From the NCBI GenBank assembly GCA_003482885.1, contig DMXN01000032.1:97974-142186 (forward strand): a stretch of DNA of 44,213 bases, read 5' to 3'. The position numbers and the translations under genes were made by a program. Under the pieces are notes generated by a model. It saw nothing but the letters and a program-made list of their open reading frames with translations, searched no databases and was not told where the DNA came from. Every line of letters starts with the position of its first letter. Positions within the stretch are counted from its first letter, which is position 1. This stretch comes from Candidatus Moraniibacteriota bacterium (GTDB lineage Bacteria; Patescibacteriota; Minisyncoccia; Moranbacterales; UBA2206). Positions 5,057 to 29,968 of the stretch are shown piece by piece.

Positions 5057-5715
5057 TTGGTCAAATAAATTATATAACCATCTAAAATTATTATAGCAAA
5101 AATACCGGCAAAATACGAATAGAAAAATGATTTGGTTTTATAGGACAGCACGCCTCCTGTAATGGAAAGCAAAACAAAGGGCATAGTTTGCCAAGAAAAA
5201 TTTTGGGTGAAAAATAAAACGGCGAAAAATATTCCGGCTTGCAGGGCGATTGACCAATACCGGAATTTTTCCCTGAAAACAGCCAGCAAAAAACCTTGAA
5301 AAAAGAAGCTAAAAATAAAAACAATAAAATTGACAATAATCAATTCGCGAACTAAAAACAGCCAAAAATTGTTTTTTATATAATCATCCAAGACATAGCC
5401 GGTTTTGAATTGAGTATAATTAAGCATTAAGTAAAAAATCGTTAGCGTAAAAATAGTTATAATTATTCCCCACAATAAAGCGATATTTTGGTTTTTTAAA
5501 TTCCAGCCGAAATCCGCGAGATTTTTTTTGAGAATAATTTTGATATATGCCATAGGGAGCAAAATCAGAAAAAATAAATTTTTGGTAATATCTTGCGCCG
5601 AATTTTGCGCGGGAAAAGCAACGCTTAAAAAAAGGCAAAGCAAAGCGACGGCGAGACTGATAAGTAGTTCTCGGTTGGAGGAGAAAAATAAATTTTTAGA
5701 TTTTTGTGAGTACAT
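5053..5715 (-). CDS. polytopic membrane protein (about 6 TM), function unknown
   Basis: 220-aa ORF that is almost entirely hydrophobic helices and translationally coupled to the 901-aa gene. The spacing of helices is faintly reminiscent of CPBP/Abi proteases, but the EExxxR and His motifs are not present, so no family call is made. Confidence 0.6.
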   Translation of the reverse strand: MYSQKSKNLFFSSNRELLISLAVALLCLFLSVAFPAQNSAQDITKNLFFLILLPMAYIKIILKKNLADFGWNLKNQNIALLWGIIITIFTLTIFYLMLNYTQFKTGYVLDDYIKNNFWLFLVRELIIVNFIVFIFSFFFQGFLLAVFREKFRYWSIALQAGIFFAVLFFTQNFSWQTMPFVLLSITGGVLSYKTKSFFYSYFAGIFAIIILDGYIIYLTK

Positions 5716-5820
5716 TTTTTAATTTTGTCAGCCCATCTTTTTCTGTCATCCCCGCGGAGGCTGGGATCCAGGCACCCTAGGCTAACTATTTTAACAAATC
5801 GAAATTCAAATTTTTTTGCA

Positions 5821-5951
5821 GGTTCAGGCGTCTCGCCTGAACCATTTATTTCTAGAAAAACTATCTATTTTTCAATCGCTAATTTTAAAATTATCTTTTC
5901 TAAATAATTAGTCTCGCCAGAAACGTTCGGTTCAAGCGAGACGCTTGAACC
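5821..5951. repeat. pair of 23-nt hairpin repeats in opposite orientation with a compensatory base-pair change
   Basis: ggttcaGgcg-tct-cgcCtgaacc (5821-5843) and ggttcaAgcg-aga-cgcTtgaacc (5929-5951). The loop is inverted and a G-C pair is replaced by A-T. They flank 85 nt of AT-rich sequence in the 263-nt spacer 5716-5978, which also contains catccccgcggaggctgggat (5747-5767). Confidence 0.8.
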
Positions 5952-5978
5952 TGCTGCTAGACCACGCCCCTACAATTT

Positions 5979-6491
5979 TTACGCGTATCCCCCCGTCATT
6001 CCCGCCATTTCTCTTTCTTGTTGCCGTTCTTCGGCGGCTTCTTTTCTTTCTTGCAGGATGAAAATATAAATAACAAAAGCGGTAATTGTTTCCACTGGTA
6101 TAAAATTCAAACCAAATAACATTTCAAAAATCGTTCCTCCGGCAAGCGTTCCCCATTTTTTGGCAATTTTTTCTGTTATTTTTTTTCCTTTGGATTTAGA
6201 ACTGGATCTGGATCCGCAAATAAACATAGCGGCAATAATTGTGATAGATGCCATAAAAGTTAACGCGGTTCCGATAACGGGAATTGATCCGACAGCTAAA
6301 AAATCTAAAACATCTTTTAAAACAGCAGTCATTATGGCGACAATGAAAAAGATGTCTATAATTTCAATAAAACCAATTAAGGAAAAGGCTTGTGAGGCTG
6401 CAGCCCTTTTGTTATTATCGCTGGAGAGTTTGTTTCTTGGCTGATTAGATGATCTTTCTTGATTTAGATTGTTTTTGTATTCTTGAGACAT
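5979..6491 (-). CDS. small membrane protein (3-4 TM) with polar N-terminus and E/R-rich C-terminus
   Basis: 170-aa ORF directly downstream of the VirB4 ATPase gene on the same strand. TM helices include IIDIFFIVAIMTAVL, IPVIGTALTFMASITIIAAMFI and ITAFVIYIFIL. Charged tail ERKEAAEERQQEREMA. Confidence 0.55.
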   Translation of the reverse strand: MSQEYKNNLNQERSSNQPRNKLSSDNNKRAAASQAFSLIGFIEIIDIFFIVAIMTAVLKDVLDFLAVGSIPVIGTALTFMASITIIAAMFICGSRSSSKSKGKKITEKIAKKWGTLAGGTIFEMLFGLNFIPVETITAFVIYIFILQERKEAAEERQQEREMAGMTGGYA

Positions 6492-6600
6492 ATCTAAAAA
6501 TTTTCAATTTCTAATTTCTAAACAATTTCCAATGTTTCAATGATAAAATTTTCCAAACTATTTTTTCATTAAAAATTGAGTAATTGAAACATTGTTTAAA

Positions 6601-6625
6601 AACCTGCCTGCCGGTAGGCAAGGTT
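6601..6625. repeat. hairpin repeat aacctgcct-gccggt-aggcaaggtt
   Basis: Lies in the spacer downstream of the VirB4 gene and is flanked by atttctaa-type AT-rich motifs (6505-6530) that recur at 20472-20510. Confidence 0.6.
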
Positions 6626-6649
6626 GAAAATTAGAAATTTAAAATTTGT

Positions 6650-8482
6650 CTATTCCCCTTCCCCAAACTCTCTTTTTGCCTCCTCGATTTCCAATAATTG
6701 CGACGGATCGGTCGTGATGATTTGGTCTTCGGAATAGGATGCGACGACTTTAATAGCGACATGCTTGGTGCCGGCGAAAAAGATTCCTTCTCCGACATTG
6801 CTTTCCAAAAGCAGAAATTTTTCTTGATCAGTCAAATAAAAAGTGTCGGAAATCACATCGATGCCGGCGGGAGACTGTTTGAGCAGAAGCTGTATTGATG
6901 AATTGGTAACAATGGCTTTGCCGTAGCGGGAAGACAAAAAGTCGTTGACATCCTGCGTAATGGTCGTAAGGCCGGTAAAATATTTTCGGCAGCGTTTGGC
7001 GATGCCGAATAAAAACGAGGCGGCGTCTTCATATTTCATCATCACCCACGCTTCATCCACCAACACTATCCTTTTTTTGAGATTGGTGCGCATTTCGTTC
7101 CAAATAAATTGCAAAATAATATACATCGCCACCGGCCGCAATTCTTCTTCCATATCGCGGATATTAAAAACCACTAATTGATTATCCGCTTTAATATTAG
7201 TGGAATGATTTAAGAATCCGGAAAAAATTCCTTCGGTGTATTTTTCCAAACGCACCGCCAAAACTTCTCCGCCGTCCAAGCTGCGCAAAACTTGGTACAA
7301 ATCGGACATTGTCGGAAAAGATTCTTTCGCGAGAGTATTAAAGTCCGTTTCAGCGGTTATATCTCTGATAGAATATGTTTCGCGAATGGCGCGATCTAAA
7401 ACCGAATCTTCTTCCGGCGTAATTGAGCCGAGCATAATATGCAAAAGTCCCAAAAGGTTGGCGATATTATTGCGCAAAATATCTTCCGGATCATCGTCTT
7501 CACCGACTTTCGGCAAATCAAAAGGATTAAGATGATTTTGTGAGTTTAATGAAATTTTGATAAAAGTTCCTTCGACAGTGTCGCAAAGATGGTGGTACTC
7601 ATTTTCCGGATCGATAATAATCACATCGGTGCCGAGCATCATCGAGCGCAAGACTTCCAATTTGACAGTGTAACTTTTTCCGGCGCCGGATTTGGCGAAA
7701 ACCACCATATTGGCGTTTTCCATTTCAAAACGGTCGAAAATAATCAAGCTATTGTTGTGGCGATTAATGCCGTAAAGAATTCCGGTATTAGAAGAAAGCG
7801 TGGAAGAAACAAAAGGAAAAGTGGTGGAGAGCGGAGAGCTGTTCATATTGGTGGCGATATCCAGTTCGTCATTCGCCAGTGGCAAACAAGAATTAAAACC
7901 TTGCTCGGATTTAAAAACGGCCGGCTTGACATAAACCAATTGCGCTTCCAAAATCGCTTCAATGCTTTTGATAATTTCCGTGACGGATTTTTCGCTATCG
8001 CCATAAGCGGTAATATATAATGCGAAGCGGAAAAATTTTTCCGTGCCTTGTTGCAGTTTGTCTCTCAATTCATCAATATCTTGCTGGGCGGTTTCCAGCG
8101 TTGGATTTCTGATCAGTCCTTTTTTTTGTTCAATTTGAACTTGCGACTCGACTTGCGTGGCGCTTTTTTTCAAAGTTTTCAAAATATCGTAAGTATCGAT
8201 AGGATGGACAAACATCGAAATATCAATTGGCAGATCGATATTGATAATCGGCGAAAACCAGTTGCTATGCAGAAAGCGCGGATAAGCGATAACGAAAATT
8301 GTTTGAGCGATAGTTTCTCCGACACGGATTGATTTGGGCATAATCTGAATTGCGGCCGGCGCGATAATATCGTTAAGTTTTGCCAAACCTTCTTGATAAA
8401 TTTTTTCCGACTCTAAAATCTCGTCAGTTGGAGCGAGATTTTGTTTTGCGGTGGGGTTGGTTTTTTTGAATGGGTTGAACAT
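6650..8482 (-). CDS. virB4: VirB4/TraC-family T4SS ATPase, ATPase-containing part
   Basis: Walker A VVFAKSGAGKSYTVK and Walker B IVLVDEAWVMM (the DEAW form typical of VirB4). The upstream segment DIIAPAAIQIMPKSIRVGETIAQTIFVIAYPRFLHSNWFSPIINIDLPIDISMFVHP is typical of the middle region of Gram-positive VirB4 homologues. Start placed at the internal MFNPFKK (ATG 8482); the 13 upstream codons of the track ORF (to 8521) run through a repeat array. Confidence 0.9.
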   Translation of the reverse strand: MFNPFKKTNPTAKQNLAPTDEILESEKIYQEGLAKLNDIIAPAAIQIMPKSIRVGETIAQTIFVIAYPRFLHSNWFSPIINIDLPIDISMFVHPIDTYDILKTLKKSATQVESQVQIEQKKGLIRNPTLETAQQDIDELRDKLQQGTEKFFRFALYITAYGDSEKSVTEIIKSIEAILEAQLVYVKPAVFKSEQGFNSCLPLANDELDIATNMNSSPLSTTFPFVSSTLSSNTGILYGINRHNNSLIIFDRFEMENANMVVFAKSGAGKSYTVKLEVLRSMMLGTDVIIIDPENEYHHLCDTVEGTFIKISLNSQNHLNPFDLPKVGEDDDPEDILRNNIANLLGLLHIMLGSITPEEDSVLDRAIRETYSIRDITAETDFNTLAKESFPTMSDLYQVLRSLDGGEVLAVRLEKYTEGIFSGFLNHSTNIKADNQLVVFNIRDMEEELRPVAMYIILQFIWNEMRTNLKKRIVLVDEAWVMMKYEDAASFLFGIAKRCRKYFTGLTTITQDVNDFLSSRYGKAIVTNSSIQLLLKQSPAGIDVISDTFYLTDQEKFLLLESNVGEGIFFAGTKHVAIKVVASYSEDQIITTDPSQLLEIEEAKREFGEGE

Positions 8483-8490
8483 AAGGGTTC

Positions 8491-8622
8491 TACGAAAGTA
8501 CAAAATTATACAAAAATACAAATGTACAAAAAAATAAAATATTTATAGCAACAAACTTGAGTTTATTTTTTTTTGTATTTTCGTACTTTTGTCCGCCGCG
8601 GCGGATTCGTAATTTCGTAGGG
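8491..8622. repeat. composite repeat array (tacgaa/tacaaa modules + gtccgccgcggcggat hairpin) forming the spacer between the two VirB4 ORFs
   Basis: ctacgaaagtacaaaattatacaaaaatacaaatgtacaaaaaa ... ttttgtattttcgtacttttGTCCGCCGCGGCGGATtcgtaatttcgtag. The two halves are an imperfect inverted repeat. The same module types occur at 13855-13898, 15018-15039, 20968-20999 and 37751-37790. Confidence 0.75.
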
Positions 8623-9309
8623 TCATTTTAACTCTATCTTTTCCGTGTCGATATAACCGGCGGTATTGAAAACGGTCGGGTTGTAAGAATTAAACAGCAA
8701 TTCGATCAATTCAGGAGTTTTCAGGGGAATGATTTTCACTCCGATGCCGGACAGTCCGGCGATAATATGATCAATTCTTTGGTAAAGCTGGCTTTTGCAG
8801 GTTTCAAAATTTTCTCTCTTTTCCAAAATGTTTTTTTGCGGATTGATAAGACTGCTAATGTTGCTGAAAAAAGTTTTTTCCTGATTTTCAATCGGAGAAA
8901 AAGGCACGATCAAATAAAAACTTTTGTCCATAATATCGGAAAGAGAAACCAGCTGGCTGATGAAATTTTTGTATTCGGAAATTTGCAAACGCATCAATTC
9001 TGTTTTTTGCTGTTTTTCTTTGTCGGTCAAAAAATCCAAATAAGTATTGATATTCAATTTTCGCGAGCTGATCAAAATTTGTAAAGGAAAATCAACCGAG
9101 TTGAGAAAATTTTGGTATTGACTGATAATTGCTTCCTGCTCCTCGGTCGCTTTTAGATCAAAGTTTATAGCGGAAACTTCGAGAACGGCGCGCAATGATC
9201 CGTTTTTCAAAACAATCGCATCTTCTTTTACTTCTGCTACGTCCAAATATTGCTGCGTCGGCGAGGCGGCATTTTGCTTGGCTAATTTTTTAGAATAAAG
9301 TTTTTCCAT
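8623..9309 (-). CDS. VirB4 N-terminal (CagE/TrbE/VirB-type) domain encoded as a separate 228-aa ORF
   Basis: DAIVLKNGSLRAVLEVSAINFDLKATEEQEAIISQYQNFLNSVDFPLQILISSRKL follows the conserved pattern of the VirB4 N-domain (compare the Agrobacterium VirB4 pattern IVLLEDGS....I.G..FEL......R...FN.L.R......V.I..H.VR). The ORF ends with TGA at 8623-8625 and is in a different frame from the ATPase ORF. Confidence 0.65.
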   Translation of the reverse strand: MEKLYSKKLAKQNAASPTQQYLDVAEVKEDAIVLKNGSLRAVLEVSAINFDLKATEEQEAIISQYQNFLNSVDFPLQILISSRKLNINTYLDFLTDKEKQQKTELMRLQISEYKNFISQLVSLSDIMDKSFYLIVPFSPIENQEKTFFSNISSLINPQKNILEKRENFETCKSQLYQRIDHIIAGLSGIGVKIIPLKTPELIELLFNSYNPTVFNTAGYIDTEKIELK

Positions 9310-9375
9310 AAAAATTGTCTTGAATATTAGTGGCCGACCATTGTGTTCAGGGCGACCACAAGGGTTCGCCCCTAC

Positions 9376-9774
9376 TTAACGGTTCTGACGATCTAATAAT
9401 CTTGAAACATCTTCAATATTTTTCGCGTCAATATTCTTTTTGCCAATTGTCGAAACAGCCGTTTGTTTCTTAGCGGAACTTCTGGATGTTTTTTCCGAAA
9501 TTCGACGCCAAATGTACATTTTCGGTCGGGTGGCGAACGAGATCGAGGATAAAATAAATTTAATCAGCGGTTGATTATATGGCCGGTAAAATGCCAGCGC
9601 TCCGAAAATTACGGCGATAATGATAACGGAAATCCAAAACGCGGATTGATCCAACAAACTATAGCAAACCAAAGCTATCACGCCGCCCATCGCCAGCCAG
9701 CCCATTTGTTTGGCGGTAAGCGGTCCGACGATCTTGTCTTCGATATCGATAAATTGGGGAACATTGAATAACAT
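9376..9774 (-). CDS. PrgI / VirB3-like small T4SS membrane protein
   Basis: 132 aa. The N-terminus MLFNVPQFIDIEDKIVGPLTAKQMGWLAMGGVIALVCYSLL matches the PrgI-family signature (VP..I..EDKI.G.LT.RQ followed by two TM helices). It sits immediately upstream of VirB4, as VirB3 genes do. Confidence 0.55.
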   Translation of the reverse strand: MLFNVPQFIDIEDKIVGPLTAKQMGWLAMGGVIALVCYSLLDQSAFWISVIIIAVIFGALAFYRPYNQPLIKFILSSISFATRPKMYIWRRISEKTSRSSAKKQTAVSTIGKKNIDAKNIEDVSRLLDRQNR

Positions 9775-9778
9775 AAGC

Positions 9779-10792
9779 TTATTCTTCTTTTCTCAAGTCT
9801 ATCACATTTTTCGGCATTGGTCTTTGAAAATTATTTTTTACCGTTGGTTTTTCGACAGAAAATTTTTGCGTGGAAGAAAAGCGGATATTGTTGGCACCGG
9901 ATTGATTTGTGTTGTTATTATTTTCCAGCGTTTCTTTTAGGGGTAAATTCTGCCGCCAAGCGCTTAATCTTTCTTCGTCGGACTGAAATGTTTGCGGTTT
10001 TTCCGATGGATAATTTTGGCGAGGAGCGGATTGTCCATCCAAGGCGGATTCAGCGAAAGACGGTTTTATTACGGGTCGTTCTTGATTGATCGCAGTGCTG
10101 AAAACCACTTGTCTGGTATTTGTATTGATAGCCAGCGGAGTTTTTTCTTCAAAGGATTTTAAAATTTGAGAAAGTTTGTCGCGATCTTGGGCGGAAAGTT
10201 TTTGGGCGTTTTCATTTTTGAATAAATAATTTCCGCGGACAATCGGATCATGATTGCTGATGCCGATGTTGAAAGTATAATCGGAAAGCCAATTTTTAAT
10301 GGACGGCCGGACGGGCTCAAAAAAACTTTTCAGTTTAATATAATCGGAAGTAATTAATTGTTCGCCTGTTTCCGGATATCTTTTAACCGCAACCTCAATC
10401 GGCAGTTTTTCGAGTTGGGATTGGTAAGCTTTTTCCTGCGAATCGTCGTTGATTATTTTTTGAATAATCATTTGGGAAATTTCTTTCGCTTTTGCTAGAT
10501 CAATCGGAATTTCTTTAGCGAGATAAAATGGCATATCTTCCAATGCTATTTCGCCGAAATAATAACTTCTAACTGTAATTGCGACTATTGAAATTTGCTC
10601 TGGATTTAAGTTGAATGTGTAGTTTATTCTTTTAATAACTTCTGCGGTTTTTTGTGATGTAAGTTTGCCTTTGTTAGTTTCAGATAAAGTATCAAGTTTG
10701 TCCCATTTGGCTAAAATGGAAGCAGAAGATTCATTGCCATAAGTCGCAACAATAGGGAAAAAGTAAAATTCAATTTTATTTTCTGTGTTCAT
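9779..10792 (-). CDS. hypothetical soluble protein of the T4SS-like cluster
   Basis: 337-aa ORF with no TM segment or signal peptide. Its stop lies 4 nt before the PrgI-like start. The C-terminal third is low-complexity and polar (Q/N/P/S rich). No recognisable motif. Confidence 0.6.
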   Translation of the reverse strand: MNTENKIEFYFFPIVATYGNESSASILAKWDKLDTLSETNKGKLTSQKTAEVIKRINYTFNLNPEQISIVAITVRSYYFGEIALEDMPFYLAKEIPIDLAKAKEISQMIIQKIINDDSQEKAYQSQLEKLPIEVAVKRYPETGEQLITSDYIKLKSFFEPVRPSIKNWLSDYTFNIGISNHDPIVRGNYLFKNENAQKLSAQDRDKLSQILKSFEEKTPLAINTNTRQVVFSTAINQERPVIKPSFAESALDGQSAPRQNYPSEKPQTFQSDEERLSAWRQNLPLKETLENNNNTNQSGANNIRFSSTQKFSVEKPTVKNNFQRPMPKNVIDLRKEE

Positions 10793-10902
10793 ATTTTTTA
10801 ACTGTAGCTGTTTTCATCTTCTCCAAAATGTTTATTTATTTCTTCCTTGGCTTTTTGAGCGCGTTCTTTTTGAACTTCTTCGTGGGGTCTTTTTGGTTGC
10901 GT

Positions 10903-12720
10903 TTATGTTGTAGCGTTGCTTTCTGGGTTAAGCCCTTCTTTTATATAAATTGCTCGTTGAGAAGGCGTGAGTTTTTCAAATAGTTTGGTCATATACTGGC
11001 TTCCTTTTTCTTTTGTGCCTATGGATTTTATATATCCTTGCAACTCTTTATCGTCTTCTATGCTATTATGCAAACTTCCTTGTTTAGCTAAATCATCTGA
11101 TGACATATCCAAAGTTTTTTCATATATTTTCGTTCTGTCAGTAATTTTTTTCTTTATAATTTCTCCGGTTTTTTCATCTTTTTCTTCAATTTCAATTCCG
11201 TGGGTAAGATCATAATCAAGCACGAATTTAATGTTGTTATCTTTTTTGGCTTTACCTCGTAATTCTTTTTGCAATTCTTCGTCTCCAGCGAGAGCTTTCA
11301 TTGCTAAATCAAAAGTCTTTGAACTATTAATCTTATCCTTTTTGGACAGATAAAGCGCTGCTGCCTTCTTTTCCACATCATCACCTTTTTCCATTTTGAG
11401 TTCGGCTCCTGATGCGCTTAGCCGTTCATCTTCAAACTCTTTTTGTTTAGCGGCGATTCGTTTTCTTTTCATGTTTTCAGAAGCGCCTTTAACTCCCAAT
11501 TTTCCAGCAATAATTGCTTCTCTTTCTTCTTGCCTTTTCTTTCCGAACCAGCTTTTATCTTGAATGTTTGCCCATCGTGCTTTTACTCCGCCAGTCAATC
11601 CGGATTTTTTTGATATAAATCCAGCTGAACCGCCAAGTGGATTTTTTGCCAGCCATTTTCCGGCTTTCTTTCCTGCTCCCACCACTGCTTGCGCTCCAGC
11701 GATTCCGGAACTTTGCGCTTGCAATATTCCGTACCATAAAATAATAATCGGCATTGAGAAATAGGAAACTTCGGCGATTAATTTTGCCAGTTCCGCAGTG
11801 ACTCCTTCGACTCCTCCCGGAACTTGAGTGGCGGCTATTGTTTTGATAACATCCTGAGAAGATCCGATTGCCAATAACATTTTGCTGGCGATGTAAAGAA
11901 AAAAGATTATAATCGGTCCGGCAAAACATTGTTTCATAAAATCCGTCCACCATTTGCTGGCGGCGCTGGCGAGCTCTGTGCCGGGAAGAATTGATCCCGT
12001 GAAAGCGACAGGCGAAAAAACAATTAAAATAGCTAGCGTGATTGTTCGGATAACCAAAAGAACGGCAATGACCAAAAGCGTGATGGCGAAAATAAAAGTG
12101 AAGACGACGGCGGAAAGAAGATACAGAGGATCCGAACTGGTTGTTACAAGCATATTTTGCAAGCCGCTTTTTTGAATAATGTCCATAAAAGAACCCGTGC
12201 CACCGAGGTTGTTTAGAAATCCGTACATTAGCATATTGGAAACATCAATAATAAATCGCGCGATGGGATAACTGAAATTGACCAAAAGCGCCATCAGCAC
12301 TAAGTTGAGCCAAATATTTTTGATGCCGTATTTGCTGTATTGAAAAATAGTGGAGAAAGCGGAAAACAATAAAACCATAATAAAAGCGATATTGAAAACA
12401 TCGCGCACCGTCCGCCAAGTCGTGTATATCGCGTTATTGTCCATTATAGCTTTCATATTATCCGGGTTGACAATATACACAAAAAGTGTTTCCGCTCCGG
12501 AAAGCAAAATAGTGACAAATTTCAGCACTATTTTAAGAAGAAAGATAACCAGTCCGGTAAATTGTTTTGCAAACCATCCGGGACTTTCTTCAGCCGCACT
12601 TGCTCCGTGCGAATAAAAAAAGACGAAAAATAAAACCAAGCAAAAAATCGCCAGAAAGTGGTTTTTGGAAAAATGATTTTTGAGGGATGATAGTTTTTGT
12701 TTTAGCATTTTTATTGTCAT
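10903..12720 (-). CDS. VirB6/TrbL-like polytopic T4SS channel protein with a long K/E-rich cytoplasmic tail
   Basis: 605 aa. It has an N-terminal signal-like helix and at least 6 further TM helices over about 380 aa, followed by a ~200-aa highly charged tail (KRQEEREAIIAGKLG...KEFEDERL...). The size, topology and position next to VirB3/VirB4 genes are as for VirB6/TrbL. No diagnostic sequence motif exists, so this is a context and topology call. Confidence 0.6.
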   Translation of the reverse strand: MTIKMLKQKLSSLKNHFSKNHFLAIFCLVLFFVFFYSHGASAAEESPGWFAKQFTGLVIFLLKIVLKFVTILLSGAETLFVYIVNPDNMKAIMDNNAIYTTWRTVRDVFNIAFIMVLLFSAFSTIFQYSKYGIKNIWLNLVLMALLVNFSYPIARFIIDVSNMLMYGFLNNLGGTGSFMDIIQKSGLQNMLVTTSSDPLYLLSAVVFTFIFAITLLVIAVLLVIRTITLAILIVFSPVAFTGSILPGTELASAASKWWTDFMKQCFAGPIIIFFLYIASKMLLAIGSSQDVIKTIAATQVPGGVEGVTAELAKLIAEVSYFSMPIIILWYGILQAQSSGIAGAQAVVGAGKKAGKWLAKNPLGGSAGFISKKSGLTGGVKARWANIQDKSWFGKKRQEEREAIIAGKLGVKGASENMKRKRIAAKQKEFEDERLSASGAELKMEKGDDVEKKAAALYLSKKDKINSSKTFDLAMKALAGDEELQKELRGKAKKDNNIKFVLDYDLTHGIEIEEKDEKTGEIIKKKITDRTKIYEKTLDMSSDDLAKQGSLHNSIEDDKELQGYIKSIGTKEKGSQYMTKLFEKLTPSQRAIYIKEGLNPESNATT

Positions 12721-12737
12721 TGAAAACTACCTCATCC

Positions 12738-12821
12738 GTCCCGATTGCTATCGGGACACCTTCTCCTTGTAAAGGAGAAGGGCTTGCAATTTTTTGTCCC
12801 CTCTCCTTACCAAGGAGAGGG
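12738..12821. repeat. three consecutive GC-rich hairpin modules
   Basis: gtcccga-ttgcta-tcgggac (12738-12757), ccttctcc-ttgtaaa-ggagaagg (12759-12781) and ccctctcc-ttaccaa-ggagaggg (about 12799-12821). An inverted variant of the first module lies at 34659-34678 (gtctcgactgcaatcgggac). Confidence 0.8.
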
Positions 12822-16987: not shown

Positions 16988-17866
16988 TTAATTTAGCAGG
17001 TTTGATAATCTTTTCCAATCCTCCACGCTCAACTCTTGCGCTCTAGCCGTTGGTTTCAATCCAACGGTTTTTATTTTTTCTTCCACAATATTTTTATCAA
17101 GTTGCAAACTATTCGCAAGATTGTTGACAAGAGTTTTTCGTTTTGCCGAAAATCCAGCCCTGATTATTTTAAAGAATCTTTTTCTTTCTTTGTTTGGCGC
17201 TTTGTGCTTTTTACATAGTACTTTTATTACTGCGCTGTCCACTTTCGGTTCTGGAAAAAAAGATTTTTTGTTGACATAAAAAAGCAATTCCGGCATGGCG
17301 TAATATTGCACAGAAACGGACAGAATGCTCATTTCGCCCGGCTTGGCGCAAATTCTTTCTGCCACTTCTTTTTGCACCATCAAAATCATTTCAGTCGGCG
17401 GGCAGGCGCTTTCTAAAAATAATCGAATAATCGCTGAAGTAATATAATACGGAATGTTGGCGATTAGTTTGTAATTTATTTGTCCGCTTCCTGCCGTAGA
17501 GACGAGGCACTGCCTCGTCTCTACGGATGTGGATATATCCGCAGTAGAGACGCCCCGCCGGGGCGTCTCTACAAATCCATCAACCAATTCCGCCAAATTT
17601 ATTTTCAAAATATCTCCCCGAATAATTTTAATTTTGTCATTCTCGTGAAAACGGGAATCCAGTTTCGCTACTAAATTATCGTCCAATTCTACGGCCAAAT
17701 TTTTTTTAGCGTACTTAGCTAATTCTTGCGTCAAAACTCCTTCTCCCGGACCGATTTCAATCACAAAATCGTCCGGTTTCAAGTCGGCGGATTGAATAAT
17801 TTTTCGCAAAACTTTTTCATCTCGAAGAAAATTTTGCCCGAGAGATTTTTTTGGTTTTGTGTTCAT
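16988..17866 (-). CDS. rsmA: 16S rRNA (adenine1518/1519-N6)-dimethyltransferase RsmA/KsgA, carrying an in-frame repeat insertion
   Basis: KKSLGQNFL N-terminal signature, SAM-binding VIEIGPGEGVLT, NIPYYITS motif and MVQKEVAERI. A ~30-aa insert (FVETPRRGVSTADISTSVETRQCLVSTAGSG) precedes the NIPY motif. Confidence 0.9.
   Translation of the reverse strand: MNTKPKKSLGQNFLRDEKVLRKIIQSADLKPDDFVIEIGPGEGVLTQELAKYAKKNLAVELDDNLVAKLDSRFHENDKIKIIRGDILKINLAELVDGFVETPRRGVSTADISTSVETRQCLVSTAGSGQINYKLIANIPYYITSAIIRLFLESACPPTEMILMVQKEVAERICAKPGEMSILSVSVQYYAMPELLFYVNKKSFFPEPKVDSAVIKVLCKKHKAPNKERKRFFKIIRAGFSAKRKTLVNNLANSLQLDKNIVEEKIKTVGLKPTARAQELSVEDWKRLSNLLN
17496..17524. repeat. 29-nt palindromic element, variant copy, in frame inside rsmA
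   Basis: gtagagacgagg-cactg-cctcgtctctac (12-bp stem). Encodes VETRQCLVST on the gene strand. Confidence 0.9.
17544..17572. repeat. 29-nt palindromic element, in frame inside rsmA
   Basis: gtagagacgcccc-gcc-ggggcgtctctac (13-bp stem). Encodes VETPRRGVST. Identical to the copy at 17885-17913. Confidence 0.9.
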
Positions 17867-17884
17867 GAATTTGTTCCCGCACCC

Positions 17885-17913
17885 GTAGAGACGCCCCGCC
17901 GGGGCGTCTCTAC
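17885..17913. repeat. 29-nt palindromic element, intergenic copy upstream of rsmA
   Basis: Identical 29-mer gtagagacgccccgccggggcgtctctac, 19 nt upstream of the rsmA ATG. Confidence 0.9.
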
Positions 17914-17947
17914 AATAACATTAATGCGTTTTTACATCGTTTATTTT

Positions 17948-18901
17948 TTAATTCAAAATTTCTTCCACTTTCACTCCAATCACTCCCGCGCCGAGTGAGG
18001 CGATTTTGGCAAAGGCGACTTTGTCGAGATCTATAATTCGATCTTTACCTTGCGGGCCGTAATCATTTATTTGCACAATAACTGATTTTCCGTTGGCTAA
18101 GTTGGTAATTTTAGCATAAGATCCGCGAGGAATGGTAGTGCTGGCGGCGAAAAGTCCGCCTTGATAGGAATACCAAGTGCCTTGTCCTGTTTTCGTATTT
18201 CCGGTTTTGACAAAAGTACCTTGCGTAATTATTTCTGTCACAGGATCTTTCGTGATATTTTTTTCCAGAGCAACGCGCGAAATTTCTTTGCCATCTTTGT
18301 AAGTAATTTTATATTTCACCTCGTGGATGCCTTTTTCTCCTTTTGTTTGAATTATTTTTTCTCGCCAGCCTGATTTCGAATCAAGCTTGGTTTCAGTTTT
18401 AAAATCAATTTCTTCAGGGATTATTTTTTCTTCCACATTGATGCGCGTGATAATAATTTCCATATTATTTTCGACAAGACTATTCTTGCTCGGGGTAATT
18501 TTATCCAATCGCCCAAGTGTAATATTATTTTCAACTAAAACTTTCGGAATATTTTTTGCCAGTGTATAATTTTCAATCTTTTCCCCATCGACTTTAATAT
18601 TTATTTTAACTGCGCGATCAACCTTAATCTGTGTTCCCGAATAAAGAAGCGTATTTTTATCAGGCATTATTTGATCGAGTTCGCTAAATTGTATTTTATT
18701 TTCTTGCAAAAATGAGTTGACAGTTTCCGCTTTCGTTATAGCTTTAAAATCAAGACCGTTGTCGTTTATGGAAATGGTTTTTGGCTTGGAAAAGTCTAAA
18801 TCAGGGTTAGCTTTATTTGGGAAAACAAAAAAAACATAACTCAGTGATATTATTATTAAATAGATAATAAATAATAATATTTTTTTAAATTTTTTAAGCA
18901 T
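17948..18901 (-). CDS. membrane-anchored cell-wall protein: 2x DUF348-like + G5 + RlpA-like double-psi beta-barrel domain
   Basis: N-terminal TM ILLFIIYLIIISLSYVFFVF and two repeats of the V..FL.EN.I.....D.I.P pattern. G5-like segment IPEEIDFKTETKLDSKSGWREKIIQTKGEKGIHEVKYKITYKDGKEISR...PVTEIITQGT. The C-terminus GQGTWYSYQGGLFAASTTIPRGSYAKITNLANGKSVIVQINDYGPQGKDRIIDLDKVAF matches the RlpA pattern (SWYG...TAA...LP.G..V.VTN..NG.SV.V..NDRGP...R.IDLS..A). Confidence 0.75.
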   Translation of the reverse strand: MLKKFKKILLFIIYLIIISLSYVFFVFPNKANPDLDFSKPKTISINDNGLDFKAITKAETVNSFLQENKIQFSELDQIMPDKNTLLYSGTQIKVDRAVKINIKVDGEKIENYTLAKNIPKVLVENNITLGRLDKITPSKNSLVENNMEIIITRINVEEKIIPEEIDFKTETKLDSKSGWREKIIQTKGEKGIHEVKYKITYKDGKEISRVALEKNITKDPVTEIITQGTFVKTGNTKTGQGTWYSYQGGLFAASTTIPRGSYAKITNLANGKSVIVQINDYGPQGKDRIIDLDKVAFAKIASLGAGVIGVKVEEILN

Positions 18902-22314: not shown

Positions 22315-22379
22315 GAACAGTAAAACAGTTTTCAATCGCAGATAGGGGGAAATTGCGATTGAAAACTGTTTTACTGTTC
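22315..22379. repeat. 65-nt hairpin with a 26-bp perfect stem
   Basis: gaacagtaaaacagttttcaatcgca (22315-22340) / loop gatagggggaaat / tgcgattgaaaactgttttactgttc (22354-22379). No U-tract follows on either strand, so it is not a canonical intrinsic terminator. Confidence 0.9.
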
Positions 22380-26268: not shown

Positions 26269-26877
26269 TGCAGGAACGGGTTTATAACCCGTTCCACATA
26301 GTTTAGGGGCAATAAATGTCATCAACCGTAATTTCACATTGCGGATTGGCGCTAGACCAGCACCAGTATTCCGGTGTGATTACATAATTTTTCTTTACGG
26401 GATTATTATGAATATAGATTGCTTTTTGAAAATAGAATTCTTCGGTTTCTATTATTTTAGGCATATTGGTTTTTTCCCAAAATTCATATTTTCCATCGGC
26501 ATCTAAAAATAATTTTAGCACATTTGGTTCTGTATTCTCAATATTTTTGCGAAATTCTTTGGAAGTGAATTTCTTGAAATCGCAGACAAAGCCGGAAACA
26601 TCGGGAGAACCGATTATTAAATGAATGTGATTCAGCATAAAAACAAAAGCGTAGATTTTCAGTTGTTTTTCTCTTTGGCAATATTTCAGCGAGTTAGCCA
26701 AAATATTCCAGCGGTATTGGCGATCAAAAAAATAATAGAGATGCTTGACGCTGAAAGTGAGAAAATAGACACCTGAATTAAATTCTTTATGTATTTTTAC
26801 CGAGGGCATTGTGAAAGCTTTGAGAAATTAAAAAGTTATTAAACCATATGGAACGGGTTGTAAACCCGTTCCTGCGG
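26269..26877 (-). mobile_element. RAYT-type (REP-associated tyrosine transposase) unit: Y1 transposase gene bracketed by inverted hairpin repeats
   Basis: Left: tgcaGGAACGGGtttataaCCCGTTCCacata (hairpin 26273-26295). Right: catatGGAACGGGttgtaaaCCCGTTCCtgcgg (hairpin 26850-26872). The right copy is the reverse complement of the left over about 30 nt with 2-3 mismatches, the layout described for REP/RAYT units. Confidence 0.6.
26303..26809 (-). CDS. IS200/IS605-like Y1 (HUH) transposase, RAYT subgroup
   Basis: 168 aa. HUH motif MLNHIHLIIG and catalytic-Tyr region AIYIHNNPVKKNYV. The size and lack of a tnpB partner fit a RAYT. Confidence 0.8.
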   Translation of the reverse strand: MPSVKIHKEFNSGVYFLTFSVKHLYYFFDRQYRWNILANSLKYCQREKQLKIYAFVFMLNHIHLIIGSPDVSGFVCDFKKFTSKEFRKNIENTEPNVLKLFLDADGKYEFWEKTNMPKIIETEEFYFQKAIYIHNNPVKKNYVITPEYWCWSSANPQCEITVDDIYCP

Positions 26878-26954: not shown

Positions 26955-27269
26955 TTAAGCGATTTTTATGCCGGTTTTTTTGATTTCATGCGCCATTGGA
27001 TTCCAATAATCGTTGAAGTCTTCCATGGTAAAACTATGCGGTTCAATTCTATTGTCTATGTCTTCTCTAGCTCTCCATAATTTCAAAATATTGGCATCGC
27101 GATTTTTTTTAATTTTTTCAGTAATAATCGCAACATCAATGTCGCTCCATTTTGTAGGTTTTCCGTGAGCATAGGAGCCAAATAAATAAATAGCAGAAAA
27201 GGGAATTTTTTGCGCTCTTAATTTTTTGGCATATTTTGCAACTATTTTTTTTGCTTCAATTCTAGACAT
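26955..27269 (-). CDS. minimal nucleotidyltransferase (MNT) domain protein, partner of the HEPN protein
   Basis: 104 aa. IYLFGSYAHGKPTKWSDIDVAII is the GSxxxG...DxD polymerase-beta-type NTase motif. It overlaps the HEPN gene by 28 nt. Confidence 0.75.
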   Translation of the reverse strand: MSRIEAKKIVAKYAKKLRAQKIPFSAIYLFGSYAHGKPTKWSDIDVAIITEKIKKNRDANILKLWRAREDIDNRIEPHSFTMEDFNDYWNPMAHEIKKTGIKIA

Positions 27270-27649
27270 AATTTTTTATAAACACTAATCGTTTTATCAA
27301 TATGATTTTTGGCGTATTCTTTTGTAATTTGTTTGTACAAACTCAATTTATAATCGGGATAACGAGCGCGAATATTAAATTCATTGGTTGTATAAAGAAA
27401 GTCTTTTTCTTCTTTTGAAATTTCCAGTTTTGCTATTTCTTGCAAACGGACAAGATCATGAATTCTTGGTGCTTGATCTTTTGTGTGCTTAACGACATGC
27501 GCTTTTAATATTTTTTCCAAAACAATATGGGCGAAAAAAAGAGAATCAGAATATCTTTTCGATTTAAAAAGTGCGTTCATTGTTACGAAATCATGCTCGG
27601 CCGTAGCCATCCAATAGTGAATAAGTTTATTTATGCTAATTTCTTTCAT
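27242..27649 (-). CDS. HEPN domain protein (toxin-type partner of MNT)
   Basis: 135 aa. AEHDFVTMNALFKSKRYSDSLFFAHIVLEKILKAHVV...RIHDLVRLQE...NIRARYPDY follows the HEPN pattern (A..D...A.......F...Q..EK.LKA......HDL..L.....RY). Confidence 0.7.
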   Translation of the reverse strand: MKEISINKLIHYWMATAEHDFVTMNALFKSKRYSDSLFFAHIVLEKILKAHVVKHTKDQAPRIHDLVRLQEIAKLEISKEEKDFLYTTNEFNIRARYPDYKLSLYKQITKEYAKNHIDKTISVYKKLCLELKQKK

Positions 27650-27656
27650 GTGTATT

Positions 27657-28154
27657 CTATATCAAAAACTTTTTCTTATTTTCGCTAAGATTGATGAAAT
27701 CGTCGAGTTCTTCTATCAGTTTATTGCTAGTGGATTCGGAAAAAGCGGCGCCTTCTACTCGGCAACCCGTAGTTGATTGAATGTATTTTACCAGTGGAAT
27801 ATAGTCGCCGTCGCCGGAAACTAAAACAATAGCATCCAAACTTTTAGACATTTTGATAGCATCCACGGCGATGCCGACATCCCAGTCGCCTTTTTTGGCT
27901 CCGCCGGGAAATATTTGCAAGTCTTTGGTTTTCACCTCGTAGCCGACTTTTTCCAGCGCGTCGAAAAATTTTTCTTCCTGTCCTTCTAAAGTTTTGATTC
28001 CATAAGCGATGGCGCGAATCAGTTTTCGGTCGTCGACCGCGGCTTTCAAAACCTGATCAAAATTAACTTTTTTTTGGTGCAAAACTTTGGCGGAATAATA
28101 CAAATTTTGAATATCCACCAAAACCCCAATTCGTTGTTCGCTAAAAATTGACAT
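27657..28154 (-). CDS. NYN-domain (LabA-like) predicted RNase
   Basis: 165 aa. RIGVLVDIQNLYYS (first acidic motif) and VLVSGDGDYIPLV (GDxD motif) are typical of the LabA/NYN family. Confidence 0.75.
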   Translation of the reverse strand: MSIFSEQRIGVLVDIQNLYYSAKVLHQKKVNFDQVLKAAVDDRKLIRAIAYGIKTLEGQEEKFFDALEKVGYEVKTKDLQIFPGGAKKGDWDVGIAVDAIKMSKSLDAIVLVSGDGDYIPLVKYIQSTTGCRVEGAAFSESTSNKLIEELDDFINLSENKKKFLI

Positions 28155-28158
28155 AAAA

Positions 28159-28428
28159 TTATCCTTTTAATTCAAGTTTTTTAATTAAAACTTTATAACT
28201 TTTTTCGTTAGTTTTTTTTAAATAATCGAGAAGCCGTTTTCTTTTGGAAACCATCTTGAGCAGTCCGCGACGGGAATGAAAATCCTTGGCGTTTTTCTTG
28301 AGATGGGTGGTTAATTTTTTGATTGTTTCGGTAAAAAGAGCGACTTGATATTCCGGCGATCCGGTATCTTTGTCATGTCTTTTGACTTCTTTTGTCACTT
28401 TTTCCTTTTGTTTGTTGCTAAGAGCCAT
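28159..28428 (-). CDS. rpsO: 30S ribosomal protein S15
   Basis: 89 aa. DTGSPEYQVALFTETIKKLTTHLKKNAKDFHSRRGLLKMVSKRKRLLDYLKK is the canonical S15 core. Confidence 0.95.
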   Translation of the reverse strand: MALSNKQKEKVTKEVKRHDKDTGSPEYQVALFTETIKKLTTHLKKNAKDFHSRRGLLKMVSKRKRLLDYLKKTNEKSYKVLIKKLELKG

Positions 28429-28550
28429 AAAACGATTGAGGCAAAACAGAAGTTGCGTTTTTATCCGTCAACTGCAGCTTGCTAATGATGAATAATTATA
28501 CTTAAAGACTATATTAAAATTGTGGTTTTGGCAAATTTTTTTTGGAAAAT

Positions 28551-28584
28551 AAAAAAGGACGAACTCGATTGAGTCTGTCCTTTT
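28551..28584. terminator. bidirectional intrinsic-terminator-like hairpin
   Basis: aaaaaa-GGACGAACTC-gatt-GAGTCTGTCC-tttt. On the minus strand the stem is followed by ttttttatttt. It would end a minus-strand transcript coming from about 29067, just upstream of the rpsO promoter region. Confidence 0.5.
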
Positions 28585-28618
28585 AGTTTGGTTTCCTGAA
28601 ACATTTGCCAAGCTCTGC

Positions 28619-28650
28619 TTGGCAGACCATCAATTTGGCAGACCATCAAT
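28619..28650. repeat. perfect 16-nt tandem duplication (ttggcagaccatcaat x2)
   Basis: Units at 28619-28634 and 28635-28650, inside the candidate ncRNA. The second unit pairs with the downstream gatggtc. Confidence 0.85.
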
Positions 28651-28997
28651 AGGGATGGTCAATATGCTCATTTTCTAGCCGAGACAGCCGATCCGGGATT
28701 CACGCGTTTACCAACGGATTCGCGACCAAGTTTTTTAAGGAATTTGGCGAAAACCTTTTTTCCTACTTATGCTCACGCATGAGTAGTTTTGTCGGGACAG
28801 TATCTTTTTCGAATACCGCCCCGACATAAGATGTGTGAGAATATTCCTTTGAACAGAATATTCTTACAGTGTAGGTGTAAAGTTGCCTCCCCCTCACTCT
28901 TCGGGAAGGCTCTATCTCTGTGACATGCGCAGACGGATCTGCGCCGCACAGGTGACACTCCCCTATCTGACAACAACAGGGGAACTCGCTTATCTTT

Positions 28998-29226
28998 CCA
29001 TCCTCATAACGCGAATACCGTTAGGCTAACTTTGGCTTAATACAGGCGTAATTAGCATCTCTGTTTCATCTAAAATTATGTAAAAACTAGTTTATTTTTC
29101 AAAAACACCCCTATATGAAGCCAATATTAAACAAATCGAGGTTTAAAACAATTAATTAATGTATCAGATTTTGGCTTATATAAAGCATATCCAGCCTAAC
29201 GGTATTCGCGTTCATAAACAGGATGG
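28998..29226. repeat. long-range inverted repeat (20-bp perfect core + 7-bp extension) flanking a 165-nt AT-rich segment
   Basis: aacgcgaataccgttaggct (29008-29027) is the exact reverse complement of agcctaacggtattcgcgtt (29193-29212). ccatcct (28998-29004) pairs with aggatgg (29220-29226). A third, partial copy, aacggattcgcg, at 28713-28724 can also pair with the 29008-29020 arm. Confidence 0.85.
29075..29102 (-). promoter_or_regulatory. sigma70-like promoter facing the candidate ncRNA
   Basis: The minus strand reads TTGAAA-(16 nt: aataaactagttttta)-CATAAT, located inside the IR-flanked AT-rich segment. The predicted start is near 29067. Confidence 0.35.
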
Positions 29227-29239
29227 AAATCATAGGTTT

Positions 29240-29425
29240 TCATATTTTCCTCCTTTTTTTGCCCTTACCTTTCGGCTCGGGCGAGTTGTCATCCTTTGCT
29301 TTGACAGCTGCAATTGTCAAAGCGAGGAGGATGGTTATGAATAATACAACCATGACGAGTGTCATGGGTTCTTTTATTGGGTTTGCCAGGAAGTCCTGCA
29401 AAGCCCTTAACTCAAGATAGGTCAT
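29240..29425 (-). CDS. 61-aa single-pass membrane mini-protein with basic C-terminus
   Basis: MTYLELRALQDFLANPIKEPMTLVMVVLFITILLALTIAAVKAKDDNSPEPKGKGKKRRKI. A perfect Shine-Dalgarno GAGAGGAGG lies 5 nt before the ATG, which is rare in this window. Its GC-richer codon usage differs from its neighbours. The stop lies 13 nt before the right arm of the 20-bp inverted repeat. Confidence 0.45.
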   Translation of the reverse strand: MTYLELRALQDFLANPIKEPMTLVMVVLFITILLALTIAAVKAKDDNSPEPKGKGKKRRKI

Positions 29426-29631
29426 TCTTACCTCCTCTCATCTCCGCAATTCAAAATTCAAATCCTCACCCCGTCGAAACAGGATTGTTTTCTTTTTAAG
29501 CGCCGGTATATTTGCGCGCCGGAAAACAATATGATGAGTTTTGATTTTGAATCGCTTCGGCGATTTTTGTTGGAGTTTAATCTTTCACCGCAAGAGAGAC
29601 CGCCTCTCTTTTTCGGCAATATTTTTTTCAC

Positions 29632-29686
29632 TTCGCCATTTGAAAACACAAAACAAATAAATTTGCTTATGGCTTCAAATGGCGAA
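29632..29686. repeat. 13-bp perfect inverted repeat (ttcgccatttgaa / ttcaaatggcgaa) with a 29-nt loop
   Basis: Arms at 29632-29644 and 29674-29686, in the ORF-poor region upstream of pcrA. Confidence 0.8.
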
Positions 29687-29953
29687 ATGAAAGCTTAAGT
29701 TGTCAAAGTTCTGAAATTTATATTACCGTTTGTTATGATATTTTTTAGGTTTCATCATAACACTGCACGATAGCATTTTTTAGAAAACTTGTCAAACGAA
29801 ATTTTGTAAAATGCTTTAATAAAGCCGTTTTTGGACTTTAAGATTTTGTGGAATTGTTGAAAATGCCCTGCATAAGCCAAATTGTTGAAAAATCAATATG
29901 GCGGATAAAAATAAAAAAAGTTTAAATTTATTTATCCTGAAACTTTTCTTTTA

Positions 29954-29962
29954 TGCTACAAT
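29954..29962 (+). promoter_or_regulatory. extended -10 (TGCTACAAT) 6 nt upstream of the pcrA ATG
   Basis: ttaTGCTACAATgattctATG. No SD is present. The geometry fits a leaderless mRNA. Confidence 0.4.
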
Positions 29963-29968
29963 GATTCT

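Follow-up and report, generated by a model that had tools for sequence, protein, structure and literature searches.

Probable double-foot REP palindromes lie in frame in the rsmA gene of a candidate phyla radiation bacterium

The rsmA (ksgA) gene of a Candidatus Moraniibacteriota bacterium, which encodes the 16S rRNA A1518/A1519 dimethyltransferase, carries two short palindromes in frame within its coding sequence, and we consider it probable (at roughly three chances in four) that these are 'double-foot' repetitive extragenic palindromic (REP) elements of the type linked to REP-associated tyrosine transposases (RAYTs, which are HUH/Y1 enzymes) of subclass 2.4, or Bertels group 4. The gene lies in a stretch of 44,213 nucleotides of contig DMXN01000032.1 (assembly GCA_003482885.1), referred to here as the window. 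An identical RsmA protein is encoded on at least 11 contigs from several groundwater samples of the Joint Genome Institute (JGI) and the European Nucleotide Archive (ENA), and the relatives of this protein are annotated as Candidatus Moranbacteria, Parcubacteria or Patescibacteria; the host is a groundwater bacterium of the candidate phyla radiation (CPR).

Palindromic elements in the window

The element is a perfect 29-nt palindrome, GTAGAGACG-N11-CGTCTCTAC. Its outer-arm pattern, GTAGAGACG-N(5-25)-CGTCTCTAC, has exactly three matches in the window and none in any of 100 dinucleotide-preserving shuffles. Two of these lie within rsmA, 19 nt apart (copies 1 and 2 in gene order; Table 1), just as an initial annotation of the window had described them. 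The third, identical to copy 1, is situated 18 nt upstream of the rsmA ATG (the annotation gave 19 nt, which is essentially right) and 34 nt past the stop codon of an upstream gene for a G5/DPBB protein, and it is followed in the gene orientation by gggtgcggg. A variant that the annotation had placed at 40842-40867 is indeed present, although it extends over 28 nt (40841-40868) and has one mismatch, in its right foot; it occupies the spacer between an S1-domain gene (40888-42366, minus strand) and the next minus-strand gene. The window thus holds four copies at three loci, of which three have the feet GTAG...CTAC and the fourth has GTAG...CTAA. The palindrome of copy 2 reaches further, to CC...GG at 17494-17526, and an inverted-repeat search reports the matching arms. 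Rfam and tRNA scans gave no match at or near any of the elements.

The inner 5-bp stems of the two intragenic copies differ at four of five positions and every change is compensated, in agreement with the annotation and with the survey of 130 copies described below. When folded as single-stranded DNA each element forms a 13-bp hairpin of -12 to -15 kcal/mol (z about -6 to -7), and the corresponding segment of rsmA mRNA folds at -62.2 kcal/mol (z -7.1 against shuffles) into two independent hairpins of 13-15 bp with a small third hairpin between them. On either strand, frame 1 of the 29-mer reads VET....VST, frame 3 reads RDA....RLY and frame 2 contains a TAG stop. It had been noted that the element would encode the same peptide in both orientations, and a plus-strand open reading frame (ORF) at 17726-17998 does read VETPRRGVST across the upstream copy. 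Within RsmA, copy 1 encodes VETPRRGVST (residues 99-108) and copy 2 VETRQCLVST (residues 115-124). The annotation had also spoken of the element in several genes; since a relaxed DNA scan (up to three mismatches) and peptide-pattern scans gave no further intragenic or decayed copies in the window, rsmA is the sole element-carrying gene within it.

The inserted segment of RsmA

RsmA has the features of its class, including a Rossmann methyltransferase domain, the GxGxG S-adenosylmethionine motif, the N(L/I)PY motif IV and a C-terminal helical domain. The ORF is intact and every column that is invariant in an alignment of 27 orthologues is present. Against Bacillus subtilis KsgA structures the protein aligns (E 2e-47) in two blocks, residues 6-96 and 134-290, leaving residues 97-133 unaligned and facing only ten residues of the solved KsgA. 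The extra residues are located, in the alignment of 27 orthologues, between the 'DILKINL' segment and 'YK.IANIPYY'. They amount to about 26 aa (VETPRRGVSTADISTSVETRQCLVST, 78 nt) rather than the 30 or so estimated earlier. An AlphaFold model built on the orthologue alignment is confident overall (mean predicted local distance difference test score, pLDDT, 82.5; predicted template modelling score, pTM, 0.80), and its sole internal stretch with pLDDT below 50 is formed by residues 100-127, between a helix (91-99) and a strand (133-136). The insert is for this reason predicted to form a disordered loop at the surface, immediately ahead of motif IV and between motif III and the NIPY motif, which accords with the surface-loop position proposed in the annotation. 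One member of the 90% identity cluster of this protein (P0242) is called in its NCBI assembly as 236 aa, starting at residue 57 (MAVELDD...) and retaining the insert; this shorter call reflects either another choice of start or a 5' defect in that assembly.

The same loop is variable in length among relatives. In 108 close orthologues with recognizable anchors, the segment before ANIPYY ranges from 12 to 68 aa. About 45 of the 108 have a basal loop of 12-18 residues, and the remainder, more than half, have recognizable products of palindromic repeats, of the types VET..VST (intact or decayed), HSERSE...LRMT, IPAQAGIQ...RGND, NPSP..GEG, TRHPLP, GSTFG..KVEPS and others. The peptides in this one RsmA loop derive, across these CPR orthologues, from at least five different palindromic repeat families. 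Some RsmA orthologues (among P0001-P0120) have inserts at two further positions in the protein.

Either the loop is simply the most tolerant place in the protein under random insertion or it is a preferred target. A more specific proposal is that it serves in the CPR as a preferred landing or exchange site, in which double-foot REPs are swapped in place as cassettes. Such a swap would be possible because these REPs are predicted to have a cleavable foot at each end, and the inner stems do differ between the window and its closest relative at the same two positions, the loop and the upstream spacer; we nevertheless consider this proposal rather unlikely.

Distribution of the element family

When one genome per species (596 Gb in all) was scanned with GTAGAGACG-N7-15-CGTCTCTAC, at least 120 stretches matched, the listed taxa including Bacteroidota, Cyanobacteria, Chloroflexota, Spirochaetales, Omnitrophota, Geobacter, Acidobacteriota, Zixibacteria, Ignavibacteriales and Rhodothermales, among others. 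This count alone proves nothing, since 18 fixed bases over 596 Gb are expected to give tens of matches by chance. The inner part of the element, however, was left unspecified, the 130 listed copies from other genomes having been chosen by their outer 9+9 nt alone, and yet the inner stem is fully complementary in 89 of them and has one mismatch in a further 27, with 38 different half-stems represented. Because the inner stem is self-complementary even though the search left it free, the family is real, and it is spread over many phyla. Its 9-bp outer stem is conserved, and its 5-bp inner stem varies yet stays paired. The unit is 28 nt long in 91 of the 130 copies and 29 nt in 32. These pairing patterns indicate that the hairpin is constrained at the DNA level across the family. 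The CGATT/AATCG inner stem of the fourth window copy recurs in cyanobacterial and Methylococcales copies, and also upstream of the rsmA gene of the closest relative.

At least 120 metagenome stretches contain the exact CCCCG 29-mer, on contigs of 32-75% GC. Around 131 such copies neither flanks nor tails are conserved and no target duplication is seen, apart from A being weakly depleted before the element and T after it, and since the flanks have nothing in common the unit is the palindrome itself. In-frame copies also occur in genes for Pfam-verified UvrB (L132) and the DNA polymerase III delta subunit (L208, a holA homologue). At five loci (L029, L035, L070, L094 and L116) tandem half-elements, for example repeats of gtagagacgttcaat, adjoin full palindromes, and at four others (L051, L087, L110 and L118) the palindrome is centred in arrays of short tandem repeats in which each side is an inverted copy of the other.

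Insertion history at the rsmA locus

Four syntenic orthologous loci were compared with the window: L246 (P0002, the closest relative), L247 (P0012), L248 (P0072) and L249 (P0019). All share the gene order PNPase ... ComM-like ... G5/DPBB gene, rsmA, UbiA. The variation among relatives that would be expected of an insertion is evident here, in that the site is empty in L248, is filled by a single perfect GTAGAGACGAGGCACTGCCTCGTCTCTAC in L247 and by a single perfect CCCCG-type 29-mer in L246, and holds in L249 an AGGCA-type copy whose left foot has decayed (gccAAGACG...); both types are present in the window. On its right side the AGGCA copy of the window has a flank (AGSGQINYK) homologous to that of the CCCCG copy in L246 (GNAGSINYK), and MAFFT pairs the two. 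These comparisons indicate that the palindromes are an insertion in rsmA, and one with a history. The AGGCA-type copy would be the older, as it is common to L247 and L249, and the CCCCG-type copy would have been added beside it later to give the dimer; the state of L246 would fit a recombination event between identical right feet that collapsed such a dimer.

Copy 2 of the window and the L247 element are identical at 28 of 29 positions, the one difference being the unpaired central base, whereas the two rsmA genes share 69% nucleotide identity overall and 53% at third codon positions. By our own arithmetic, the probability of at least 28 matches in 29 at 69% per site is about 3e-4. This disparity indicates that the hairpin is constrained or homogenized at the DNA level, independently of the protein, and the perfect stems may owe as much to recent transposition or homogenization as to selection on this particular copy. 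A comparable history can be read from the spacer upstream of rsmA. In L246 an intact GTAGAGACGCGATTAATCGCGTCTCTAC directly follows the common flank aaacgat, and the window has at that place a degenerate gtaaaaacgcattaatg and then the intact CCCCG copy; from this comparison of two sequences, the degenerate segment is probably a remnant of an older REP. Elements thus appear to turn over in place.

Could the hairpins be kept instead as host RNA or DNA signals for rsmA, for example in mRNA stabilization, translation attenuation, as a processing site or as a barrier between the upstream gene and rsmA, with a mobile origin being secondary? The strong folding of the mRNA segment (z -7.1) and the conservation of the 29-mer above the background of the gene would suit such a role, as would the fact that the window and L246 both have an element in the short spacer preceding the rsmA start, though with different inner stems, and functions in mRNA stability and termination have been proposed in the REP literature. 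We regard it as improbable, since L248 has no element in either the gene or the spacer and L249 has none in the spacer, unrelated palindrome families occupy the same loop in other orthologues, and genomes spanning 32-75% GC contain the identical 29-mer in intergenic sites and in unrelated genes. There is no match to an Rfam family, and the absence of a T-run after the upstream hairpin (17885-17913) led us to reject a role for it as an intrinsic terminator.

Association with RAYT transposases

Members of TnpA-REP subclass 2.4 are described as having REPs of the 'double foot' kind, in which the 5' foot is GT[AG]G and the 3' foot C[TC]AC, and transposases with the motifs NH[IFV]H, WQ and YIxNNP, within whose genes REPs are found in frame between HuH and Y (Quentin, Siguier, Chandler and Fichant, 2018; PMC6006769). 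Several loci of the genome scan have just this arrangement. Immediately next to the palindromes are ORFs with HUH and Y..NP motifs that match NCBIfam NF047646 ('REP-associated tyrosine transposase') with E values of 1e-9 to 1e-18 and, more weakly, Pfam Y1_Tnp. In L027, L059 and L110 a RAYT ORF has GTAGAGACG-type hairpins on either side, and in L025 (1541-2209) the palindrome is in frame inside the RAYT gene itself. The clade linked to GTAGAGACG has the motifs MPNH.H ... WQ.R.HDH ... YI.NNP.

When the metagenome stretches were searched for RAYTs with the ten element-coded residues masked, 16 of 120, among the matches listed, were found to have the exact 29-mer inside a RAYT gene of the subclass 2.4 type, always after the MPNH.H strand. 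RAYT genes with an in-frame palindrome at one fixed position after the HUH strand include those of L025, L149, L155, L165, L182, L208, L222 and L232, among others; they come from contigs of very different GC, which agrees with PMC6006769, and those of L155 and P0232 have two or three palindrome copies. Such in-RAYT palindromes may account for one exact 29-mer reaching unrelated genomes.

A search with a low-GC subclass 2.4 RAYT found 2,927 relatives at E<=1e-10, including three from the CPR, namely P0197 (Candidatus Moranbacteria), P0232 (Candidatus Falkowbacteria) and P0235 (Patescibacteria group), each with VETPR.GVST inside. The P0197 gene (contigs L250 and L251) has a perfect CCCCG 29-mer 60 nt upstream of its ATG, followed by gggtgcggg, and among the 131 copies this tail is common only to L250/L251 and the window copy at 17885-17913. 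L251 belongs to the same BioProject as the ENA contigs of the window. On these similarities it is plausible that a cognate RAYT resides in the genome of the window or in a closely related one.

The window does contain a RAYT of its own, 8.4 kb from rsmA (Table 1), and that enzyme rather than one of subclass 2.4 might have mobilized the GTAGAGACG elements. It is a bona fide RAYT (81.9 bits to NF047646, against a cutoff of 80), and its gene is found at the same syntenic position in L246, which also holds elements, and in none of L247-L249. Nonetheless, we give this explanation little credence. The gene is flanked by hairpins of the form GCAG-GAACGGGTT(N)AACCCGTTC-CTGC, which have no similarity to GTAGAGACG and are unrelated to the rsmA elements, elsewhere the GTAGAGACG palindromes flank or sit in a different RAYT clade, and L247 has an rsmA element without any RAYT at that position. 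The enzyme belongs to a subclass other than 2.4. No further copies of its hairpin were found in the window.

It is highly improbable that the segment is an ordinary, fast-evolving ancestral loop with incidental palindromy, or that it reflects a pseudogene or an assembly artefact, for although the loop varies in length in all orthologues and one database call (P0242) is N-terminally shorter, the perfect 29-mers are identical to copies in many unrelated contigs and did not arise by chance in shuffles, empty-site orthologues exist, the ORF is intact with complete conserved motifs and a confident fold outside the insert, and independent assemblies gave the same sequence on at least 11 contigs from several samples. 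A further candidate was a type IIS restriction site, CGTCTC being the BsmBI/Esp3I site; it was rejected, as it leaves both the complementary variable inner stem and the RAYT association unexplained.

Several points weigh against assigning the elements to double-foot REPs mobilized by subclass 2.4 RAYTs. There is no subclass 2.4 RAYT within the 44-kb window, L250/L251 may come from a different genome, and the window has only four copies of the element. The want of any target-site signature or conserved flank around the 131 copies makes the insertion chemistry invisible in sequence. The dimer is retained throughout the 90% identity cluster (three members), and since all sampled population variants carry it, they show neither presence/absence polymorphism nor ongoing mobility at the rsmA site. 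More generally, repeat abundance around group 4 RAYTs is only modest (Bertels et al., 2017; PMC5581495), and transposition of REPs in vivo by any RAYT is poorly documented in the literature consulted.

With these reservations, the assignment to double-foot REPs leads to the following scheme, in which we infer both the mode of movement and the enzyme responsible in this genome. The elements would have arrived by RAYT-catalysed cleavage and joining of single strands. They would have survived in rsmA because the element is open in two of its three frames, the 78-nt insert is frame-neutral and the loop is tolerant. Their stems would be kept perfect by RAYT recognition, re-insertion or homogenization and not by any need of RsmA, and the occurrence of an identical 29-mer in unrelated genomes would be due to horizontal transfer inside or beside its transposase gene.

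Relationship to known palindromic elements

The double-foot REPs of subclass 2.4 have a GT[AG]G foot and its reverse complement at the 3' end of a long hairpin, are associated with RAYTs, have copies inside RAYT genes and show a patchy distribution among phyla, and the wider GTAGAGACG family resembles them in these respects; the window elements are short hairpin palindromes, three of the four with both feet. In the accessible text of PMC6006769 subclass 2.4 has abundant members in Cyanobacteria and in Bacteroidetes and scattered ones elsewhere, the double-foot REPs are described mainly from those two groups, and no CPR or Patescibacteria are mentioned; group 4 RAYTs have been found in 17 bacterial classes (PMC5581495). 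The present elements differ also in that the cognate RAYT was not found in the window, and they are placed in the class by its description and not by sequence identity of GTAGAGACG to the published families.

There are also parallels to the GTAG-tagged REPs of Di Nocera, De Gregorio and Rocco (2013; PMC3733652), which are short GC-rich palindromes with a terminal GTAG and with sub-families defined by alternative complementary stem residues, and which form dimers 20-100 bp apart. Their intragenic in-frame copies are mostly dimers that encode 20-30 aa, often in repair and replication genes, to be compared with the 26-aa dimer in rsmA and the copies in uvrB and holA homologues seen here. In those REPs, however, GTAG is an unpaired tag at one end, whereas here it is paired with CTAC in a symmetric element. 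That survey of eight phyla predates CPR genomes. Neither the GTAGAGAC string nor VET/RVST peptides were found in its supplements, so the element is unmapped to its 24 GTAG families; in the searchable literature the literal motif GTAGAGACG was found in primer sequences only.

The initial annotation likened the elements to Rickettsia palindromic elements (RPEs) and suggested an analogous family. The likeness in behaviour holds, both being palindromic repeats in frame in intact and often essential genes, at surface loops that tolerate them, but rather than a new analogous family the elements fit the published double-foot class. They have no sequence relation to RPEs, of which RPE-1 is much longer, and they lie outside RPE-1 to RPE-8 in having GTAG/CTAC feet and not a terminal CGTC with a CCA tail. 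RPE-4 and RPE-6 have been equated with CGTC-tagged REPs (PMC3733652), a superfamily with no dedicated transposase known, unlike the GTAG-footed and RAYT-linked elements of the window. The rsmA insert is a doublet, as is the supposed mobile unit of REPINs (Bertels and Rainey, 2011; PMC3116915), although a REPIN consists of two inverted copies of one REP that pair together, whereas the two hairpins here are separate, have different inner stems and each fold on themselves; REPINs are linked to RAYT groups 2 and 3 rather than to group 4 (PMC5581495). Nor are the elements miniature inverted-repeat transposable elements, which measure 70-300 bp and have terminal inverted repeats and target-site duplications, as the unit is 28-29 nt. 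The elements, if rightly assigned, belong to a published class, and REPs in frame have been published already. In the searchable literature we found no prior report of a CPR host for double-foot REPs, of the exact 29-mer across contigs of 32-75% GC, or of recurrent occupation of the RsmA loop or in-place turnover of elements there.

Other features of the window

The coordinates of the elements and of the RAYT unit are listed in Table 1. The RAYT gene adjoins a HEPN/nucleotidyltransferase pair (26955-27649). A spacer separating two minus-strand genes contains a pair of neighbouring hairpins of a different type (CCTTCTCCTTgtaaAGGAGAAGG and CCCTCTCCTTaccAAGGAGAGGG; 12759-12821). An 840-nt stretch without long ORFs includes a perfect 26-nt inverted repeat whose arms are 13 nt apart (22315-22379) and which has no Rfam match. 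A region of about 1.8 kb (28154-29969) lacks ORFs of at least 100 aa as well as Rfam and tRNA matches, and includes an imperfect 26-nt inverted repeat at 29626-29692. A conserved type IV secretion-like cluster (PrgI, TraC-like, VirB4/TraG-like ATPase, TrbL) occupies 5000-12720 of the window and is present in L246-L249, lying downstream of rsmA-UbiA in all relatives examined.

Table 1. Positions of rsmA, the palindromic elements and the RAYT unit in the window
Feature	Position	Strand or location	Description
rsmA/ksgA	16988-17866	-	292 aa, intact; Pfam RrnaAD
Probable double-foot REP, copy 2 (gene order)	17496-17524	in rsmA	inner sequence AGGCACTGCCT; inner stem AGGCA/TGCCT
Spacer between intragenic REPs	17525-17543	in rsmA	19 nt; small palindrome GGATATATCC inside; encodes ADISTS
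Probable double-foot REP, copy 1 (gene order)	17544-17572	in rsmA	inner sequence CCCCGCCGGGG; inner stem CCCCG/CGGGG
Probable double-foot REP	17885-17913	intergenic	inner sequence CCCCGCCGGGG; identical to copy 1
Putative degenerate remnant of older REP	17919-17935		reads gtaaaaacgcattaatg in gene orientation
RAYT flanking hairpin	26270-26295		GCAG-GAACGGGTTTATAACCCGTTCC; inverted relative to 26850-26875
RAYT	26303-26809	-	168 aa; HIH and YIHNNP motifs; REPtron-like unit 26270-26875
RAYT flanking hairpin	26850-26875		GGAACGGGTTGTAAACCCGTTCC-TGC; inverted relative to 26270-26295
28-nt variant GTAGAGACGCGATTAATCGCGTCTCTAA	40841-40868	intergenic	inner stem CGATT/AATCG; right foot CTAA

Biological implications

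If the assignment is right, a known class of selfish hairpins, together with its in-frame residence in essential genes, is extended to the reduced genomes of CPR/Patescibacteria, where intergenic space is scarce, so that such elements may find a major refuge in coding loops. Peptides such as VETPRRGVST, RDAPPGRLY, HSERSEE...LRMT and IPAQAGIQ...RGND should then be read as repeat-derived and not as functional motifs or signals of homology, and the element could be used as a marker for finding its transposase. The rsmA locus, with its empty, single, dimeric and decayed states, provides a compact natural series for the gain, homogenization and loss of REPs. Should the RsmA loop prove to be a preferred site of exchange, RAYT-type enzymes would continuously rewrite short surface loops of essential CPR proteins, and RAYTs would carry their own REP across phyla inside their gene.

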